Assembly: GCA_042408875.1 (NCBI GenBank) | Contig: JBHOQS010000014.1 | Location: forward strand, 2,891 to 66,890 | DNA length: 64,000 nt | DNA from: Chloroflexota bacterium | GTDB taxonomy: Bacteria > Chloroflexota > UBA11872 > JBHOQS01 | Direction of reading: 5' to 3' | Shown: positions 1-18,736 of the stretch, piece after piece | How positions within the stretch are numbered: position 1 is the first letter of the stretch | Layout: each line of letters begins with the position of its first letter | Position numbers and translations under genes: made by a program | The notes under the pieces: model-generated | The model's database searches: none | What the model saw: the letters and a program-made list of their open reading frames with translations, nothing else | Told to the model about the DNA's origin: nothing

Positions 1-299
1 ATGTGCAGCGAGACGACATCCACCTCGAAGGAGGTATGCTCCTTCTTGCCCGCCAATCCAGTTGCGGATCGAGGAGGGGGGCGTAGCTGTACTGGCTCGT
101 CTGCCGCTCGCGGACTTCGTAGGTAGGTGCGAGGCCGGCAGGGGGATTGTTCTTGCGCCGGGCCTGTGCGTGCCGAAAGTCGCGCACGCTGTTGCGCTCC
201 GTCGGATGCGTCTTCCTTTTGCGTGGCATTGAACTCACCCCTTAAGGCTACTTGCTCTGAGAGGCTTCCGATCTCGGACTCCATCCAGAAGGGCCAGTG

Positions 300-440
300 C
301 CTCGAAGGGCTCGCCGTCGTCATCAACTGGCTCAGCACCCACGTAGCGGCCGGGTGTGAGCACGTAGCCGTGCTTGCGGATCTCTTCCACTGTGGCGCTC
401 TTGGAAAAGCCGGGGCCGTCCCGGTAATCGCCTGCGCCTG
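300..440 (-). pseudogene. hsdM: C-terminal fragment of type I R-M methyltransferase HsdM (duplicate of about 1260-1400)
   Basis: Encodes [45 protein letters not shown] near-identical to the 3' end of the hsdM at 1154-2655. No N-terminus. Confidence 0.85.
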
Positions 441-523
441 CCTGCCGCGCCCGACCTGAAGTCATAGCAATGCGGATTGGCCAGCTTGCAGCCGGCCTCG
501 ATGCCCTTCCCCCTTCACGGGAC

Positions 524-877
524 TCACCCGCTATAGCCCAACTCCTCCAACCGCTTCAGCAATCTTTCTATGGAAGGTTTAAGGGCTGGCGCGTCACGGC
601 TGGCCGCCTCCCATACGATGTCGAGGTCAATGTCGAAGTAACCGTGAACCAGAACATTCCGCATCCCGATGATCTTTGCCCATTCGATTTCTGGTGCCAT
701 GGCCCGCACGTCTTCAGGCAGTCCCCTGGCCGCCTCCCCAATGATCTGCAAATGGCGGACGAACCAACCCTGCAAGAGTTCGTCCTGCTCAAAAGCGGCT
801 CGACCCCTGCCCAAGTAGCGCTCAATGGCAGCGATGGCATCCAGGATGTCCCGCAGGCGCTCCTTCGGGTCTCTCAT
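524..877 (-). CDS. hepT: HepT-like HEPN ribonuclease toxin (DUF86)
   Basis: 117 aa with RX4HXY motif (RNVLVHGY). Start overlaps the stop of the upstream nucleotidyltransferase. Confidence 0.9.
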
Positions 878-1164
878 AGTGGCACGGCCTCCTTGAGCAC
901 CCGATCCCGAATGCGCGGCTTGATGCCGCGATCGCTTACCACATCCACCGGGCGGCCCAGCAGCTGCTCGAGTTCATACTGAAGTCCGCCCAAGTCGAAC
1001 AGGCTCCGCCCCGCTTCCATCTCCACCAGAAAATCGATGTCGCTCTCCTCATCTGCCTCGCCGCGGGCAGCAGAGCCAAAGACCCGGACGTTGCGGGCAC
1101 CGTATTTGGCGCAGATGCGCAGGATTTCTTCGCGCTTTGCCTTCAGCAACTCCTCAAACGTCAT
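874..1164 (-). CDS. mntA: MntA-like minimal nucleotidyltransferase antitoxin
   Basis: 96 aa with GSX10DXD motif ([17 protein letters not shown]) and RPVDVV. Paired with the HEPN gene; start overlaps the hsdM stop. Confidence 0.9.
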
Positions 1165-2655
1165 ATCCGAGCTCCTTCAGGTTCCGGGCGATGGCGGCAT
1201 CGAGCTTCGCGGCCTCGGCCTGCTGCTCGCGCAGTTGCGCCACCAGACGGGCCATCTTCTCCTCGAAGGGCTCGCCGTCGTCATCAACTGGCTCAGCACC
1301 CACGTAGCGGCCGGGTGTGAGCACGTAGCCGTGCTTGCGCACCTCCTCGAGCGTCGCGCTCTTGCAAAAGCCGGGCACGTCTTGGTATTCGCCCGCGTCC
1401 TTCTCACCACGCCAGGCGTGGTAGGTGTCGGCGATCTTCCGGATGTCCTCGTCCGTGAGTTCCCGGTGGACCCGGTCCACCATGCGGCCCATCTTGCGGG
1501 CGTCGATGAAGAGCACCTCGCCGCGGCGGTCGCGCAGGGGCTCTTTTCTTCCCGCGGGCGGGCGTCCGCTCTTGTCTCGGGCGAGGAACCACAGGCACGC
1601 CGGGATCTGGGTCGAGTAGTAGATGGAGGACATCCAGCCGTTGGCCAGCACGAAGCCGGCCACCCCGCGGGCGCCAGGTGGTGGATGATGTGCTGCACCC
1701 AGGCGAAGTTGGCGTTGCCGGCGGGCGGCACGCCGAACTTCCAGCGGCGGTCCTCCAGCAGGTGCTCCCCGCCCCAGCGCTTCATGTTGAACGGCGGATT
1801 GGCCAGGATGTAGTCGGCCTTGAGGTCGGGGAAGCGGTCGTTCGTGAACGAGTCGCCCTGCTCGATCTTCGCGTCGATCCCGCGGATGGCGAGGTTCATC
1901 TTGGCCAGCCGCCAGGTGGTGTAGTTCAGCTCCTGGCCGTAGATCGAGATGTCGCCGATGCGCCCCCCCTGGGCGCGGATGAACTCCTCGGACTGCACGA
2001 ACATCCCCGAGGAGCCGCAGCAGGGGTCATAGACGCGGCCGCGGTAGGGCTCGAACATCTCCACGAGGAGCTTGACGATGCAGCGGGGCGTGTAGAACTC
2101 CCCGCCCTTTTTGCCTTCGGCGCTCGCGAACTGGCCGAGGAAGTACTCGTAGACCCGCCCCAAGATGTCGCGGGCGTGGTTGTCACCCCCGCCGAGGTGG
2201 ATGTTGGAGACGAGGTCGATGAGCTGTCCCAGGCGCTGCTTGTCGAGGGCGGGGCGGGCGTAGTCCTTGGGGAGCACCCCCTTGAGGGAGGGGTTGTCCC
2301 GCTCCACGGCTGCCATGGCGTCGTCCACGAGCTGGCCGATGTCCGGCTGGCGGGCGCTCTTCTGCAGGTGCGCCCAGCGGGCCTCGGGCGGCACCCAGAA
2401 GATGTTGTCCGCCCGGTACTCGTCGGGGTCCTCGGGGTCGGCGCCCTGATCGCGCTGACTCTCGAGCTTGGCGCGGTGGGCCTCGAAGGCGTCCGAGACG
2501 TACTTGAGGAAGATGAGCCCGAGCACCACGTGCTTGTACTCGGCGGCGTCCATGGAGCCGCGCAGGGCGTTGGCGGTCGCCCACAGCTGGGCCTCGAAGC
2601 CGAGGTTGGCGGAGGTCGCGTCCGACTTGCCCGTGTTGTTCTTTCGCTTCGCCAA
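1154..2655 (-). pseudogene. hsdM: Type I R-M methyltransferase subunit HsdM, frameshifted with internal deletion
   Basis: [15 protein letters not shown] and NPPF motifs. Frame changes near 1665 (HHLAPAG / VAGFVLANG). The segment normally between MSS and YSTQIP appears missing. TTG start with GGTGAGGT RBS. Confidence 0.9.
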
Positions 2656-2699
2656 TGGCTACCTCACCCAATCATTTCGCCGAGGCGGTGTCCAAGGGC

Positions 2700-2810
2700 G
2701 TCTAACGGCTTGCGGCTGAGCCGCCGCGCCCTCTACCAGAACGCTACGAATGAAAATGAGCGCCCAAATTGCGGCCCGTTGGCGCGGTCGGCTCCAGTCG
2801 CTTGTTGGGC
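2700..2810 (-). other. Integron attC recombination site
   Basis: Minus strand: R'' GCCCAAC (2810-2804), 5-nt spacer, arm CTG-G-GAGCCG-A-CCGCGCC read as CTGGAGCCGACCGCGCC, variable loop, arm GGCGCGGCGGCTCAG, spacer, R' GTTAGAC (2706-2700). The arms pair with two extrahelical bases. Starts 8 nt after the SRPBCC stop. Confidence 0.85.
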
Positions 2811-3357
2811 GGCAGCGGCTAATGGTCGTCCTTAGCATGGCGCGGACCATCTTCAAGTATGCTCTTGAGACGATTGAAGTCGGGTCCCAGAGTGGGGCGC
2901 ACAACGAGGTTGAGGAAAAGGGCCACCAAGGGGGCTGCCAGAACCTTCAAACCTTTCAATGGTACTTCGAGGCGAAAGTACAGAATCGTTCCTGCGCCTC
3001 CTCGCGCAAGCTCATAAATGGCACTCGGACGGATCGGTCCGGAGGCACGCTGCACGGTGATGAGCCTCGGTGGTTCGAAGGCCGTGATCACCGCCTCTGT
3101 TTCGATCGTGCGCCCTGGCACCCACCGTACTTCGATCTGACGAGACCAAGCTCCTCCCAGAGCCGATTCAGTTCCAATCGCGCGCATCTCGAGCACATTG
3201 GCTCGCCACCTTGGATCATTGGAGAAGTCCGAAAGGAAGGCGAAGACGTCTTCCGGTTGTCGACTGATTTCGACCTTGTGGCTGAGCTTCATATGTTGTT
3301 CCTCCATTGTGATTTGGCTCCTGGCGTTTCGAGCACGTCACCTCCGAGTCCGCTCAA
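2706..3357 (-). mobile_element. Integron gene cassette (SRPBCC ORF + attC)
   Basis: Upstream core G/TTGAGC-GG (3358-3350) fits GTTRRRY and is complementary, with one mismatch, to the cassette's own R'' CCGCCCAAC. One ORF is followed by attC. Confidence 0.75.
2819..3292 (-). CDS. SRPBCC (START-like) family protein
   Basis: [23 protein letters not shown]...FEPPR pattern. ATG at 3292 with GGAGG RBS (ORF track start 3307). Confidence 0.85.
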
Positions 3358-3419
3358 CGGCCTCGAGATGGGACGTCCGGTCAGCCCTTCGAGCCTATCC
3401 GGAATCTGAGTCTCCGCAT

Positions 3420-3921
3420 TGCCTTCGGCGCTGGCGAACTGGCCGAGGAAGTACTCGTAGACCCGTCCCAGGATGTCGCGGGCGTGGTTGTCACCCCCGC
3501 CGAGGTGGATGTTGGAGACGAGGTCGATGAGCTGTCCCAGGCGCTGCTTGTCGAGCGCGGGGCGGGCGTAGTCTTTAGGAAGCACCCCCTTCAAGGAAGG
3601 GTTGTCGCGCTCCACCGCCGCCATGGCCTCGTCCACGAGCTGGCCGATGGTGGGCTGGCGGGCGCTCTTCTGCAGGTGGGACCAGCGGGCCGCGGGCGGC
3701 ACCCAGAAGATGTTCTCGGCTCGGTACTCGTCCGGGTCCTCGGGGTCCGCGTAGGGTTCGGCCTCCAGACGCCGGTGGTGCTCCTCGAAGGCATCGGAGA
3801 TGTACTTGAGGAAGATCAGGCCCAGGACGACGTGCTTGTACTCCGCCGCGTCCATCGAGCCGCGCAGGGCATTGGCCGCTTGCCAGAGCTGGGCCTCGAA
3901 GCCCAGCGTGGCGGAGCTCAT
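3420..3921 (-). pseudogene. hsdM: N-terminal fragment of HsdM (second copy), truncated
   Basis: [35 protein letters not shown]...[13 protein letters not shown], highly similar to 2113-2600. Homology stops abruptly at about 3420. Confidence 0.88.
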
Positions 3922-4299
3922 GGGTGTCCCCACCCTCCGGGCATCCCTCTCGGCTGCAACGCTACCGCTGTAGCGCCTGTGATCCCTTCGACTCATCTCC
4001 ACCCCTTTGACCAAGTTCTGGCCGAATTCTACCTAGCGTTGCTCCCCCTAGCAACCCGCCGTAGATGGGGGTGGTTTTGGTATCGTGACTTCCAGTCCAT
4101 AATTGGAGCGACAACATGAGTTGCGTGCTTCAATTATTCAATCATTTCAATTATTCAACTGAAGACTCGAAGGCTCCCACTGTCAACCCGCCCGGAGGCC
4201 TGATTGGGGGACCGGTTTAGGTGTGTGGTAGGAGTGATAGGAGTGATAGGAGAGGAGAGGTAAGAAGAGCTTCCCAAGCCTGAGTAGACTGACGGCCTG

Positions 4300-4628
4300 C
4301 CCGACGCGGGTGGTGCGCGTCCTTGGCCGGTGCCCGTTGCGGTACCCTGGTCGCGCGTCCGTCCGCTCAGAGGGGGCGGCCGTGCGCTGGTCCGTCCCCT
4401 GCGCCGCCAGCACCTGGTTCAGGCCCTGCGCCAGGAGCCTGGCCCCCCTCGTCCTGGCGGACAAACAGGTGATGGAACAGCTCGCTGGCTACGGTCACCT
4501 GGTCGTGGGCCATCCCTCCCCCCCCCTGGTGTGGTTTGCTGCCGCCTTCCCGCTCCCAGCGGGAGGGTGGCCCTTCTTGCTCACTCCCGGGCCACCCCGC
4601 TTTTTCCACACAATACCGGACACAACTC
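4300..4628 (-). mobile_element. IS256-family element remnant (left end plus frameshifted transposase N-terminus)
   Basis: MAHDQVTVASELFHHLF (ATG 4513), then in another frame LNQVLAAQ...ERTDARPGYRNGHRPRTRTTRVG, the IS256 GYRNG...TRVG motif. IR-like end GAGTTGTGTCCGGTATTGTGTGGAAAA at 4628-4602. Confidence 0.8.
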
Positions 4629-4649
4629 AGAACGGGGGGGGAGATTCAG

Positions 4650-5240
4650 CTACTCCGCGGCCTCGGCGTCCAGCGCAGACGGGCTGGCCGTCCCGCCCTC
4701 GCTGAGGGCGTCGCCGGGCAAGGCGGGCTCCGCGGGAGAAGCAGGAGTTGCCGCCTGGCAGAACACGGCGCGCGTCCCCTGGTCGGTGTGGTACTCGTAG
4801 CGCCGCCCGCCAGCAGCCAGCACCAGGCGGTACCCGGGGGTAATCACCTGGAGGTAGAAGAAGCCCGGCTGCGGGCAGCCGAGCGAGCTGTCCGGCCAGT
4901 CGACGGCCTCGAGCTCGACCACCGCAATGGTCTCAGGAGGCACACCTGTGCGCGCCGCCAGGTCCTGGATGGCCAGCGCAGCCACAGGGGGCAGCGCACT
5001 CGGGTCGGCAGGTTGCTGAGGTAGTGGGGCCGGCGACATCGGTAGCCTGATGACAATACTCCCGCCGCAGCCGTGGTCGGCGGCACCTCCGTAGGCCGAG
5101 AGTGAATCCAGCCTGACCGGATGGCATGCCTCGGCCGGCCCAGCCAGGCCGAGCCAGAGCGCCACGCCGGCGATCATCCCAGTTACCGCAAGCAGGGCCC
5201 ATGCGACGATGGCGTCCTGGCTGTGACCAGGTGTACGCAT
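4650..5240 (-). CDS. Secreted or membrane-anchored hypothetical protein
   Basis: N-terminal hydrophobic segment, conserved-looking WPDSSLGCPQPG...TPGY...YEYHTD block, AAGGAG RBS. Confidence 0.75.
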   Translation of the reverse strand: MRTPGHSQDAIVAWALLAVTGMIAGVALWLGLAGPAEACHPVRLDSLSAYGGAADHGCGGSIVIRLPMSPAPLPQQPADPSALPPVAALAIQDLAARTGVPPETIAVVELEAVDWPDSSLGCPQPGFFYLQVITPGYRLVLAAGGRRYEYHTDQGTRAVFCQAATPASPAEPALPGDALSEGGTASPSALDAEAAE

Positions 5241-5312
5241 CTAGTATACTCCTTGCCGGTAGAGTTCTCACCAGGATACTTCCTACCGGGATAGGTCTTA
5301 AACACCTTCCTG

Positions 5313-6083
5313 ATGCCAGATCTCTTGAGCGTTGCACGGCGTTCCGCATTCCCGCGGAACGCCGTGCAAGATGCGTATCGGGTGTGTCTCGGCGCCGGTT
5401 CGGCGAAATCCATGTGCTCCTTGCACACGATTCAACGTCGCGGGCCTGCGAAAAGTTCCCATCCAGTTGGAACTGACGACAGATCGGACACAGGGCGTGA
5501 GCCTGCTCTGAGCAGCGTTCGGCAGCCCACACGGCGCGGGCTCATCGCCCTGGTGTGGGGCAGCGCCGCGTGGGGATGCGGCGCCGCGCCGGCGCCGCGC
5601 GTGACGGTACGCGAGGTGGCTGAGTTGGAGCAGCGGGTCCGCGAGCATGCCGTCCGGCTGGAGCGCATAGCGGCGTTACTGGAGGAGCATCGTGAGACGC
5701 CCAGCGCCGCGGCGCTGGCCGCAGCCTGCCGCGCCGCCACAGCACGCCTGCCGCGATTGCGCTATAGCCTGCAGGAGACGGCCCGCTCGCTCTTCGAGTT
5801 CCCGCCGGATGCTTCGCGGGTGGAGTACCGTCGCGCGGTGAGCGAAGGGCGCGTGCTGCGGCAGGAGGCCGCCGACCTGGTCGCACAAGTGCAGGAAGTA
5901 CGCCTCCTGCTCCGGCGTATGGCCGCGCTCCCAGACATTGCCGATGTGCCGGCGTTGCAGGCTGAACGTGCTGCCCTGGAGGATGATCTGGCAGTCTTCG
6001 AGCGCGCAGCAGCACGCTTCGAGGCCTATGGACGTATGCTTGAAGAGCAGGGCAGCGCATTCCAGCGCAGCCTCGGTCGGTGA
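5313..6083 (+). CDS. Hypothetical helical protein, probable Tat lipoprotein (true start probably near 5500)
   Basis: TRRGLIAL...AWGC signal-like segment followed by coiled-coil-like helices. Start codon uncertain. Confidence 0.55.
   Translation: MPDLLSVARRSAFPRNAVQDAYRVCLGAGSAKSMCSLHTIQRRGPAKSSHPVGTDDRSDTGREPALSSVRQPTRRGLIALVWGSAAWGCGAAPAPRVTVREVAELEQRVREHAVRLERIAALLEEHRETPSAAALAAACRAATARLPRLRYSLQETARSLFEFPPDASRVEYRRAVSEGRVLRQEAADLVAQVQEVRLLLRRMAALPDIADVPALQAERAALEDDLAVFERAAARFEAYGRMLEEQGSAFQRSLGR
5332..5369. other. Perfect 16-bp inverted repeat (hairpin) between divergent genes
   Basis: TTGCACGGCGTTCCGC-ATTCCC-GCGGAACGCCGTGCAA. Confidence 0.7.
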
Positions 6084-6148
6084 GCTTGCTGCCCTGCCCT
6101 GAGCGGAGCAACCGGCACATGTGCATGCCGGAGGGGAGAAGCAGAGCG

Positions 6149-6904
6149 ATGGCGGTGACGACACAGCGACTCGGCGTGGTACTCCTGTCGGGCGGACTAG
6201 ACTCGACCACGGTAGCAACCCTGGCCGTGCGCCAGGGGTACACGGTCTGGGCGGTGACGGTGCAGTACGGCCAGGCCCATCAGCGCGAGCTCGAGGCGGC
6301 ACGGCAGGTGGCGCAGGCGTTGGGTCTGCGCCATCAGGTCGTGGAGATCACGGCGTTCAAGGACCTGGCCTGGTACTCAGCGCTTACCCATCCGGAGCGC
6401 TTTGGCATCCCCAGTGGACGCTCTCCGGAGCAGATAGCGCGCCAGATCCCGCTCACCTATGTGCCGCTGCGCAATACCTTCCTGCTGACCCTGGCGGCGG
6501 CCTATCTGGAGAGCGCAGCGCTCCACGCTATCGAAGTCGAGGGTGCTGCGCCAGAGCAGCTCGAGGTCGTGCTGTTCATTGCCGCGAATGCTATCGACTA
6601 TAGCGGCTACCCCGACTGCCGCTCGGAGTACTACCGCGCTATAGCCGAGGCGCTGCGGCTGGGGAGCAAACTCGGGACCCAGTACGGCGTGCTGTTCCAG
6701 ATCGAGACGCCGCTTATCGCCAGAACCAAGGCCGAGATCGTCCGCCTAGCTGTCGAGCTTGGGGCCCCGCTCGAGTACACCTGGAGCTGCTATCTCGGCG
6801 GCGAGCGGCCGTGCGGGAAGTGCGATAGCTGCCTCCTGCGCGCCAAAGGCTTCGCTGAAGCAGGCATTCCCGATCCAGCCCTGGTCTCGCTGGGCTGGAG
6901 CTGA
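6149..6904 (+). CDS. queC: 7-cyano-7-deazaguanine synthase
   Basis: SGGLDS, YVPLRN, YPDCR and TWSCY...CGKCDSC zinc motifs. Confidence 0.93.
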   Translation: MAVTTQRLGVVLLSGGLDSTTVATLAVRQGYTVWAVTVQYGQAHQRELEAARQVAQALGLRHQVVEITAFKDLAWYSALTHPERFGIPSGRSPEQIARQIPLTYVPLRNTFLLTLAAAYLESAALHAIEVEGAAPEQLEVVLFIAANAIDYSGYPDCRSEYYRAIAEALRLGSKLGTQYGVLFQIETPLIARTKAEIVRLAVELGAPLEYTWSCYLGGERPCGKCDSCLLRAKGFAEAGIPDPALVSLGWS

Positions 6905-6929
6905 TAGCACGCTGCCGCTCCCAGCCATC

Positions 6930-8087
6930 CTACGGATGCACGATCACCGGAGTGCCGATACCCGCCCAGTCCCAGAACCAGCGCGCCGTGGCTAGGCGTA
7001 GGTTCACACAGCCGTAGCTCATCGGCTGGCCGAAGTTGTTGTGCCACCAGGCGTAGTGGATGGCGTGCCCGACGCCGGTGAAGTACTGCGTGTACAAAAC
7101 ATTTGTCAGCAGGTACCCCTTCGGGCTGGAGAGCGGGATACCGATCGTGCGTGAGTCCATGGTTTCGTTGTAGACGCGGCGCTGGATGGCAAAGATGCCA
7201 ATGGGAGTCAGACCTTTATCAGCGCGGCCGGTGGAGACCAGATCGCTGAAGACAGCACGCTCGCCCTCATATGCGGTGATGCGCTGGCGGCTGATACTGA
7301 TGTCGATCCATTTCATGCCCCAGGGGCCGTACGCTTCGAGCGCCGCCTCCGTCGAGGCCACGCGTGGAGCCCGTGGGAAGAGCGCTTCCCGCCAGTCCGG
7401 GGCCTGCTCTGCTCGCGCCACGGGCTCCACCGGTACGCCGGCGCGGGCGGCCGCTTCAGCGCCGAGCAGGCCGGCCGTCACGGGCTTGTTGGGCTCCCAC
7501 TCCAGCCGGAAGCGCTGGAAGTACTGCACGGTCCGGTCGTTCTCCCAGAGCTCTTCGGTAATGGGATAGCCGAGCACGGGCACACCGCCATGTTGGTCGA
7601 GAAACTGTAGGAAGCCAGCGCCAACGCTGTGCCCGGTCTCGGGGTAGTAGCGCCGCCCGGTCACGCGCTCGTCTTCTTCGGGCGGGGGGACGCGGCGCTG
7701 CCCTTTGCTCAGCTCATCGGCGAGCAGGCCCAGCTCGACCGGGCCGCCTTCTCCAGGGCGCTCGAAGCGGCAGCGTTCGAAATACTGCACGATGCGATCG
7801 CCCCACTCGAGCTCTTCTGTCAGCGGCAGGCCAAAGAGTTCTGCGCCGCCCATGGTACGCCAGAACTGTAAGAAATCCTGCTGGAGGTGATGCCCGGTCT
7901 CAGGGAAGTACACCAGCGACACGTTTGGCCCAACCACCGCGTGGTGTTGACTTGCCTGAGCCCGCTCCAGACCTGCGAAGCCTCCGAAAGCTGTCCCGAG
8001 CGCCATGCCTGCAAGGGCCAGTGCCACGCGGCGGCGCGATAGCCCTGCGCGATGAGCCGAACGGTCTCCTGTGCCTGCACCTGCCAT
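6930..8087 (-). CDS. Tat-exported L,D-transpeptidase with FPETGH-type repeats
   Basis: SRRRVAL Tat signal, YFPETGH/GYPITEE/VQYFQR repeats, YkuD catalytic motif AIH...SYGCVN. Confidence 0.9.
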   Translation of the reverse strand: MAGAGTGDRSAHRAGLSRRRVALALAGMALGTAFGGFAGLERAQASQHHAVVGPNVSLVYFPETGHHLQQDFLQFWRTMGGAELFGLPLTEELEWGDRIVQYFERCRFERPGEGGPVELGLLADELSKGQRRVPPPEEDERVTGRRYYPETGHSVGAGFLQFLDQHGGVPVLGYPITEELWENDRTVQYFQRFRLEWEPNKPVTAGLLGAEAAARAGVPVEPVARAEQAPDWREALFPRAPRVASTEAALEAYGPWGMKWIDISISRQRITAYEGERAVFSDLVSTGRADKGLTPIGIFAIQRRVYNETMDSRTIGIPLSSPKGYLLTNVLYTQYFTGVGHAIHYAWWHNNFGQPMSYGCVNLRLATARWFWDWAGIGTPVIVHP

Positions 8088-15940: not shown

Positions 15941-18736
15941 ATGCGTGCGTGGCATACGCTGGATGGGCTGGATGTAGTCAGGGAGCTGAACACTGATGTG
16001 CAGCATGGTCTCAGTGCTGACGAGGCGGCGCGCCGCCTGGCCGCCTACGGCCCCAATGCACTGGTCGAACGCGGCCGCAAGGGTCCCTGGCGCATCCTGT
16101 GGGAGCAGCTCACCGCCACGCTGGTGGTGCTCCTGCTGGCGGCCGCGACCATCTCGCTGGTGCTCGGCGACTACAAAGACGCCGGGGCCATCCTAGCCAT
16201 CGTAGGGCTCAACGCGGCGCTCGGGTTCGTCCAGGAGTATCGCGCCGAACGGGCCATCGCCGCGCTGCAACGCCTGGCAGTCCCGCTCGTACGCGTGCGC
16301 CGGGACGGCCACGTGCGGCTCATCGCCGCGCACGAGCTGGTGCCGGGCGATGTCGTCCTGCTGGAAGCCGGCAGCCTGGTGCCGGCCGACTGTCGCATCC
16401 TCGAGGCGATTAACCTGCGTGTCCAGGAAGCCGCGCTCACCGGCGAGTCCGAGCCGGTGGAGAAAGATCCGGCGCCCCTTCCTGTGGCGGAGGTGCCGTT
16501 GGGCGACCGGCGCAACATGGTCTACATGGGCACGGCGGTGGCGTACGGGCGGGGCGTGGCCGTGGTGGTGGCGACCGGCATGCGCACCGAGCTGGGGCGC
16601 ATCGCCGAGCTCCTCCAGCAGGTCGAGCACGAGCCAACGCCCTTGCAGCGGCGGCTGGACCGCCTGGGCCGCCAGCTAGCGGGTGTGGCGCTGGCCATCG
16701 TGGCCGTGATCGTGGCGGCGGGCCTGCTGCGGGGCGAGGACCCGCGCCTCATGTTTCTCACCGCGGTAGGTCTGGCGGTGGCTGCCGTCCCGGAGGGGCT
16801 GCCGGCAGTGGTCACCATCACGCTGACGCTGGGGGCCCAGCGCATGCTCCGCCGGCGCGCACTTATCCGCAAGCTACCCGCAGTGGAGACCCTCGGTTCA
16901 GTCACGGTGATCTGTACGGACAAGACCGGGACGCTGACGGAGAACCGCATGACCGTCACCGTGCTCGCACTGCCGGACCGGCGGGTGGAGCTGGCCGGGC
17001 ACGAGCGCCGCGGCAACAGGCTGCCCGCCCCCGACACTGGGACGGCGCCCGCGCCCGATGGGCAGCCAGCCGTAGCGCTTGTGCTCGCCGGTGGCGCGCT
17101 GTGCAGCGATGCCGTGCTGGAGCCGGGCTCCGGCGCGCCGTTGCAGGTGATCGGCGATCCCACCGAAGGTGCGCTGGTTGTGGCCGCGGCGCGGTTCGGC
17201 CTGGCCAAGGCAGCGCTCGAGGCGCGGCTGCCGCGCATGGCCGAGCTGCCGTTCGACCCGGTGCGCAAACGCATGACTACCGTTCATGCCATCGACGCGG
17301 TGCCGGCGGCCCAGGCAGGGGATATGGTGGACGGGAACGCAGACTGGCTGGCGACGCTGCGGCGGGCCTTCCCCGAGATGCGCGCGATCGTGTTCACCAA
17401 GGGCGCAGTTGACGGACTGCTGCCTGTATGCAGCCATATATGGGTCGACGGCCGGCCCGTACCGTTGGACGCAGCCTGGCGAGCGCGAATCGTGCAGGAC
17501 CACGACCGGCTGGCCCAGCAGGGCATGCGGGTGCTGGGCATTGCCTTCAAGCCCGTTGGCGCAGTGCCGGAGGGGCTGGCGGGACGCGCGCTGGATACGC
17601 TCGAGCAGGAGCTGATCTTCGCTGGCATGGTGGGGATGATCGACCCGCCGCGACCTGAGGCGAAGTCTGCCGTGCAACGCTGCCGCGAGGCCGGCATCCG
17701 GCCGGTGATGGTCACCGGCGATCACCCGCTCACCGCCCAGCAGATCGCTCGCCAGCTCGGCATCGCCACGGACGGCCACATCCTGACTGGTCAGGAGTTG
17801 AACCGCATCGCCGCCGCGGAACTGGAGCGAGCCGTCGAAGAGGTTCCGGTGTTTGCCCGCGTCTCGCCGGAGCACAAGCTCCGGATCGTGCAGGCGCTCC
17901 AGGCACATGGCCACATCGTCGCTATGACTGGCGACGGCGTAAACGATGCGCCCGCGCTCAAAAAGGCCGATGTGGGGGTGGCCATGGGCATCACTGGCAC
18001 CGATGTGGCGAAAGAAGCGGCCGACATGGTGCTCCTGGATGACAACTTCGCTACCATCGTGGCTGCAGTGGAGGAGGGGCGGATCATCTACGATAACATT
18101 CGCAAGTTCATCCGCTACCTGCTAACTACCAACTCGGCCGAGATCTGGGTGATGCTACTGGGCCCGCTGCTCGGCCTGCCGCTGCCGTTGTTGCCGCTGC
18201 AGATCCTGTGGATGAACCTGGTGACCGATGGCCTGCCGGCGCTGGCCCTGGGCTTCGAGCAGGCCGAGCGCGACGTGATGCGCCGCCCGCCCCATCCGCC
18301 TGGCGAAAGCATCTTCGCCCGCGGCCTGGGCCGGGACGTGGTCTGGGTAGGCTTGCTGATGAGCCTGCTTGCGCTGGGCCTAGGCGCCTGGTACTGGCAG
18401 AGCGGCCGGGCAGAGTGGCAGACCGTCCTATTCACGACGCTGACCCTCTCGCAGCTGGCCAACGTGCTGGCCGTCCGCTCCGAGCGCGATTCGCTCTTCA
18501 CCATTGGATTCTGGTCGAACTGGCGGCTGGTGGCTGCCGTGCTGCTGACCGTGCTCGTGCAGCTTGGGCTGCTCTATGTGCCGGCCCTTCAGGCGATCTT
18601 CGGCACCGTGGCCCTGCCGGCCGGCGACCTGGCGCTGACACTGGTGCTGAGCAGCATGATTTTCTGGATCGTCGAAGTGCAGAAGTGGCTCTTGCGCAGC
18701 CGGCAGCGCGCACGCGCGCAGGCAGGTGCGCGCTAG
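15941..18736 (+). CDS. Cation (Ca2+-type, P2A) transporting P-type ATPase
   Basis: [39 protein letters not shown]. 931 aa, intact. Confidence 0.95.

Follow-up and report, generated by a model that had tools for sequence, protein, structure and literature searches.

A probable solitary integron gene cassette with SRPBCC cargo in a decayed restriction-modification island of a Chloroflexota bacterium

Gene cassettes can persist away from the integrons that collect them, and resistance cassettes at secondary sites of plasmids are a familiar case: a lone cassette with its attC lies outside any integron and is stabilised by an improper 5' junction. The cassette described here resembles these in form, but its cargo is not a resistance gene and its site is chromosomal. 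Solitary elements made of one CDS and one attC, called SALINs, and off-site insertion of cassettes at GWT sites are described in the passages of Loot et al. on lone cassettes (bioRxiv 10.1101/2022.09.11.507474), where 3,400 SALINs are counted in 2,469 of 21,105 RefSeq genomes. Clusters without an integrase, or CALINs, need at least two attC sites according to the relevant passages of Cury et al. 2016 (PMC4889954), which propose integrase loss, rearrangement and secondary-site insertion as their origins, list Chloroflexi among the integron-encoding phyla, and set aside 431 single attC sites as possible false positives.

We analysed a 64,000-nt stretch of contig JBHOQS010000014.1 from a Chloroflexota bacterium (the window; coordinates refer to it unless the contig is named). 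It holds one SRPBCC gene followed by one attC, with neither a further att site nor a nearby intI found, as in the SALINs of those passages, and the GTT trinucleotides flanking the cassette fit the GWT insertion consensus given there. Compared with the SALINs reported in the same passages, two things differ: the host lineage is thermophile-associated and its sampled relatives within the class show no IntI, and the landing place is a decayed type I restriction-modification (R-M) island with a possible half attC upstream. A cassette without an integrase is also what a CALIN offers, but here only one attC passes the model used, and unlike the 431 sites set aside in the passages of Cury et al., this attC has an independent homologue and breakpoints at the level of the cassette. 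The solitary cassette is a known kind of element, with no new mechanism and a generic cargo function. Its features are as follows.

2700..2810, minus strand: attC site of 111 nt, matched by the covariance model over the full model length
2810-2804, minus strand: R'' core GCCCAAC, 8 nt past the stop of the SRPBCC ORF
2706-2700, minus strand: R' core GTTAGAC, which closes the attC site
2795 or 2794 (G) and 2788 (A), 5' arm on the gene strand: bulges of the L''/L' stem, placed by arm pairing
between G2706 and T2705, minus strand: predicted attC crossover
2819..3292, minus strand: SRPBCC cassette ORF, 157 aa from ATG 3292, with the TAG stop at 2821-2819
3307, minus strand: alternative in-frame ATG of the SRPBCC ORF, product of 162 aa
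3300..3305, minus strand: Shine-Dalgarno-like GGAGGA, 7 nt 5' of ATG 3292, read from the sequence and putative in function
3352..3358, minus strand: GTTGAGC, upstream R'-type core, 59 nt 5' of ATG 3292
2706..3357, minus strand: whole cassette, 652 bp, starting at T3357

A preliminary description of this DNA had proposed a cassette made of an SRPBCC gene and an attC, and the features it pointed out (the cores, the bulged G and A, the 8-nt spacing and GTTGAGC) are all present in the sequence. The attC carries inverse cores at its two ends, R'' of the form RYYYAAC and R' of the form GTTRRRY. Its stem is imperfect, with an extrahelical G and A on the '' arm, which set the strand. The upstream GTTGAGC (3358-3352) agrees with the complement of the R'' core GCCCAAC at 6 of 7 positions, as expected for the circular form, vs only 5 of 7 positions at which R'' and R' pair in the present linear context. 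A single ORF lies directly before the attC and GTT bounds both ends, which is the layout of a cassette. The composition is foreign to the genome: the GC content of the cassette is 0.585 vs about 0.65 for the genome, and the GC3 of the SRPBCC ORF is 0.61 vs 0.81 for queC. A consensus scan found no promoter-like site inside the cassette.

The minimum free energy structure of the bottom strand contains the L''/L' stem with its two bulges. Against dinucleotide shuffles, the folding energy is not significant (z = +0.49 on the minus strand and -0.60 on the plus strand), and the thermodynamic hairpin test was dropped as support because this energy is ordinary for GC-rich DNA. Since BLASTN also found no second copy of the element in the genome, a joint test of sequence and structure was needed. 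A first heuristic scan, which combined core heptamers with arm alignment, found true arrays; as it scored the candidate at only 1-2, it was replaced by a covariance model.

The model, R1, was built from the flanks of integrase genes of the same phylum: for ten intI genes, as much as 20 kb was taken on the side where an array would lie. By a simple scan, five of these ten stretches contain repeat arrays bounded by RYYYAAC and GTTRRRY, one of them (L050) with 11 sites. Twelve IntI-adjacent repeats from 5 genomes were oriented by the strand expected from the direction of intI and then aligned. R1 is thus a custom model, distinct from the attC model of IntegronFinder, and its E-values are rough. 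There is good support for the structure it encodes: pairing holds in 94.4% of 267 cells, both sides vary in 11 of 23 pairs, the covariation score was reached by 0 of 500 shuffles, and slid controls drop to 29-37% paired. R1 is also specific. Matches at E<=0.001 occur in 26 of 151 sampled genomes of the phylum, and these cluster in IntI-bearing families, four of which contribute 8/9, 6/9, 2/2 and 3/3 genomes. As a side observation, 12 of the 26 R1-positive genomes have no IntI match at E<=1e-40, and many of the assemblies are fragmented; integrase-less attC sites or clusters therefore appear common in assemblies of the phylum.

Applied to the window, R1 matches 2700-2810 on the minus strand over its full length, with 47.4 bits and an E-value of 2.6e-11, and the bulged G and A of the candidate align to the two unpaired positions of the model. 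A search of the contig with an attC covariance model had been named beforehand as the check, and with this custom model it returned a significant match exactly where the site had been placed. With filters off, the opposite strand reaches only 7.8 bits vs 47.4 bits on the gene strand, so the attC faces the same way as in real cassettes, its ORF being on the top strand. Genome-wide (4.37 Mb), the site has an E-value of 1.7e-9 and the next best match 16.2 bits and E 1.1, which leaves 2700-2810 as the sole match with E <1 in this pre-filtered search. A segment within the coding sequence of hsdM, 2349-2413 on the minus strand, gave 16.6 bits with filters off (E 0.0016 in 8 kb); this corresponds to about E 1 at genome scale, so it was treated as noise and is most likely just that. 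A further window match at 17392-17470 (11.3 bits, E 0.42) was likewise taken as noise. No second attC was found by R1 on the contig, where filters were off over contig 1-8000, and the genome-wide absence of other sites refers to the pre-filtered search together with this filter-free search of 8 kb. Pre-filters do cost sensitivity: a single-genome scan missed the Actinomycetes site described below, and the scan of the 151 phylum genomes, run with stricter filters and giving matches in 0 of 14 same-class genomes, missed the studied genome's own attC, so its negatives are weak.

The studied site has much in common with the five sedentary chromosomal arrays of the phylum. The arrays share with it GCCYAAC, a short spacer and GTTRRRY, as well as a stem whose 5' arm on the top strand has a bulged G and a bulged A, and an ORF before the site on the top strand. 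Whereas these arrays consist of many near-identical sites beside intI (11 in the L050 stretch), the studied site is single; it matches none of the arrays closely, and its nearest relative is in a metagenome-assembled genome (MAG) of Actinomycetes.

We then consider the integrase. The proposal of a cassette with no integrase nearby holds: no integron integrase was found on the contig, and in the genome (all 30 contigs, 92.3% complete) the best score against TIGR02249 is 72 bits vs a cut-off of 265. The search for intI and further attC sites, including the region left of position 1, found neither by profile search or R1. The preliminary description had called integrons little studied in this lineage. 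They are not rare in the phylum, where IntI is above cut-off in 32 of 401 sampled genomes, though in 0 of 45 sampled genomes from three families of the same class. Because only one attC on the contig passes R1, the element is classed as a SALIN (one attC and a CDS, with no other att site or intI found nearby) and not as a CALIN, which has at least two clustered attC sites without an integrase. Nor is it a complete integron, in which intI, attI and Pc lie beside the cassettes.

To find relatives of the attC, a motif was composed of R'', the seven free bases and the first ten stem bases of the candidate. Named genomes contain this 5'-arm motif in at least 145 stretches, and the matches listed span many phyla, with Acidobacteriota, Gemmatimonadota, Chloroflexota classes, Planctomycetota, Nitrospirota, Proteobacteria and others among them. 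Of the 80 loci examined, 51 have the motif at the start of a full attC by R1 (54 matches, 23-64 bits), and the score of the candidate falls in the upper third of these matches. As the motif was taken from the candidate, the shared 5' arm is circular as evidence, while the matching 3' arms are not.

The closest relative is a 111-nt attC at 678-788 of a 10.7-kb contig of the Actinomycetes MAG. Over 108 nt, which take in the loop, it shares 85% identity with the candidate (E 2e-30), and the likeness spans 3 nt before R'' to 3 nt after R' and no further. The gene before it is unrelated to SRPBCC, its product being a YgaP-like membrane protein of 72 aa, and IntI was likewise not found in this MAG. 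A cassette system predicts such a pattern, in which two phyla carry one recombination site behind different cargo. Two other observations concern this contig. At 335-355, 59 nt before the YgaP-like ORF, lies a perfect 21-nt mini-palindrome, GCCTAAC-N7-GTTAGGC, which scores 14 bits by R1 on both strands; it may represent an attC that has collapsed, or else a landing site. Beyond the attC, 804-2108 holds an unannotated 174-aa ORF and a vapBC pair.

To delimit the cassette, 2450-3600 was compared with contigs of four public metagenome runs from four studies. A contig of run X1 spans 2535-3454 at 0 differences, which shows the assembly to be sound across all junctions; the studied genome may itself come from the X1 sample. 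Contigs of X3, a run of another study, cover 2626-2733 and 2704-3448, and in both runs the cassette is in the hsdM context. A third study gave a different picture. There, in X6, a 1,927-nt contig matches 2704-3361 only, with 3 differences, and continues beyond the match into unlike sequence, for 23 nt on one side and 1,246 nt on the opposite side. Its breakpoints fall at the second T of the R' GTT (2704) and 4 nt past the upstream GTT (3361). These are the expected ends of a cassette cut at G|TT and preceded by a site ending in ...GCCG, and the cassette was therefore set at 3357..2706; the end at 3380 given in the preliminary description is slightly too far. By sequence comparison, the same cassette thus occurs in a second context, of which the flanks are known only as unlike sequence. 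None of the four runs contains a contig joining across the cassette, i.e. an empty site, and joints that appear to go back come from hsdM paralogues. Of 40 relatives compared, 0 share 2656-3418, and they yielded no sequence of the site before insertion. More broadly, the stretch or parts of it appear in hot-spring, subsurface and hydrothermal-vent metagenomes of several studies (runs X1-X11), and the hsdM parts attract contigs of many other organisms in these runs.

The cassette is internal to a 69-kb contig and has ordinary genes to its left and right. Its immediate surroundings contain the following.

3419..3919, minus strand: truncated hsdM copy, N-terminal part, Pfam HsdM_N, just 5' of the cassette
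1177..2655, minus strand: full-length, frameshifted hsdM, starting 44 nt after the attC
1164-524: MNT/HepT toxin-antitoxin pair
300-436: third hsdM fragment, C-terminal
contig 1114-2718, left of the window: intact 534-aa hsdM of another type
4183-4464, minus strand: 93-aa ORF matching a Mutator-family (IS256-like) transposase profile over 44 residues, E 7e-5
4026..4054, minus strand: promoter-like site 5' of the truncated hsdM, a consensus match only, with 1 found vs 0.2 expected
3357..3387, minus strand: putative 3' arm (L'-spacer) of a lost preceding attC, a weak short BLAST match

The frameshifted hsdM carries Pfam HsdM_N and N6_Mtase over two frames, 1177-2655 and 1154-1663. The hsdM fragments are 83-93% identical to it: the truncated copy matches 2111-2410 at 93% and 2475-2617 at 83%, and the homology stops at about 3419. 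Left of the window there is also a frameshifted AlbA_2/HATPase_c_4 gene. The region has the look of a type I R-M island that decayed and was rearranged repeatedly, and the initial guess of a defence hotspot is borne out in this form, as decayed R-M and toxin-antitoxin genes. The transposase match at 4183-4464 is probably an IS remnant; it lies beside the truncated hsdM and may have brought about the rearrangement. As an aside, four pieces of hsdM lie within 7 kb, with the MNT/HepT pair between two of them.

How the cassette arrived can be approached from its upstream flank, where the right half of another attC, and with it the relic of an array, had been suggested. In favour, 3387-3357 matches the 3' end of the L140 attC at 27 of 31 positions and in register (E 0.18 in a 4.8-Mb database). 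Against it, R1 run on 3335-3425 gave no match (-1.3 bits), and the model found no second site on the contig; short BLAST searches with the 62-nt and 44-nt flanks of the cassette returned nothing else of note. The sequence likeness is suggestive only. It hints that the cassette is a piece of an array and not one clean insertion, and the match to L140 gives the array-fragment origin a slight lead over a clean insertion at a GTT of the genome. We give roughly even odds to the cassette having come as a fragment of a donor array, the upstream part of which would have been lost in rearrangement. IntI-mediated insertion at a non-att GTT ('attG'-type) site is a possible but doubtful route, and arrival by some other route seems unlikely.

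The cargo itself is unremarkable. The SRPBCC protein belongs to Polyketide_cyc2 (PF10604), scoring 47.5 bits vs a cut-off of 27.4 (E 3e-12), and its homologues align from about residue 7. Its AlphaFold model (pLDDT 87.4) has a helix-grip fold, with strands followed by a long C-terminal helix, and the best PDB matches of this model are CoxG-like, START and TcmN ARO/CYC proteins at E ~1e-7 and 14-21% identity. The predicted structure points to a binder of hydrophobic ligands and to nothing more specific. The relatives at 54-70% identity number 13, all metagenomic. In genomes of the phylum, the relatives are at most 41% identical, and 30 of 401 genomes have one at E<=1e-10, a tally that includes one unpublished genome. 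The idea that SRPBCC homologues might travel in other cassette arrays was not borne out: none is encoded in the integron arrays examined, a scan of genome contigs found none as cassette cargo, and an attC accompanies 0 of 12 homologue loci (one metagenomic locus at 58% identity and 11 loci of the phylum at 30-41%).

Taken as a whole, we read the locus as a genuine integron gene cassette stranded outside any integron, i.e. a SALIN, with a probability of roughly 0.85. The reading to be weighed most carefully against it is that the cassette is part of a complete integron, whose intI and attI either fall within the 8% of the genome that is not assembled or were split off by rearrangement, so that a resident IntI still serves the cassette. 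The genome is indeed only 92.3% complete, arrays assemble poorly (many IntI and attC matches of the phylum are on short contigs), a transposase fragment of the Mutator/IS256 family lies 0.8 kb upstream, and the region is rearranged. However, none of the 30 contigs carries an IntI above cut-off, no other attC with E <1 was found in the genome, the cassette sits between ordinary genes of a 69-kb contig, and the three same-class families lack IntI in all 45 sampled genomes. We consider a complete integron improbable on this balance.

The two remaining explanations dispense with cassettes altogether. The site could be an attC-like small palindromic mobile repeat, MITE or REP-like, that is moved by a transposase; a discrete 111-nt module behind unrelated genes in two phyla, with IntI found in neither genome, would suit such a repeat. 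Yet a single copy is present in the genome and not many, the cores and bulges fit a model made only from IntI-adjacent array repeats, and the unit shared with X6 is more than the palindrome, namely an ORF together with the site, bounded by GTT on either side. This makes a mobile repeat very improbable. Finally, a chance hairpin or a transcription terminator might stand behind a horizontally acquired gene, with the RYYYAAC/GTTRRRY cores a coincidence. The folding energy, ordinary for the GC content, would allow this, but coincidence sits badly with a genome-wide R1 E-value of 1.7e-9 and with 85% identity to an attC of another phylum that is confined to the site, and for a terminator there is no T-tract and the terminator scan gave no call. 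We find this explanation scarcely credible.

If the locus is a stranded cassette, its workings can be sketched by analogy with studied attC sites. The bottom strand of the attC (the plus strand of the window) would fold into a hairpin, in which an integron integrase would read the R''/R' cores, the L''/L' stem and the two extrahelical bases, and would cut between the G and the TT of R'. As no integrase was detected in the genome, the cassette would currently be fixed; an integrase supplied in trans could mobilise it again. Read-through from the truncated hsdM upstream probably accounts for transcription of the promoterless SRPBCC ORF, and the promoter-like site at 4054-4026 could drive this read-through into the cassette.

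An attC that stands alone is usually set aside as a possible false positive. The site studied here is backed by three independent lines, namely the model match, the cross-phylum homologue and the cassette-exact breakpoints in metagenomes. It documents traffic of cassettes into a lineage whose sampled class relatives lack the integrase, and into an R-M/toxin-antitoxin island. It also offers a concrete substrate for work on the integrases of the phylum, acting on sites with a C/T extrahelical pair on the bottom strand. A wider reading, which we hold to be rather unlikely, is that the cassette belongs to a pool that even now moves across phyla and through thermophilic and subsurface communities. 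It is based on the same allele in two contexts, on an attC family with other cargo in Actinomycetes, and on class relatives without the integrase. If it were true, integrases acting in trans would seed cassettes into the decaying defence islands of integron-less lineages, and the SRPBCC cargo could serve a role tied to the defence island.

A minor observation concerns the left edge of the window. An 89-aa ORF at 2-238 on the minus strand (contig 2859-3128) has no Pfam match. We take it to resemble the N-terminus of adenine-specific DNA methylases of type III-like systems, and it may be another defence-gene fragment.
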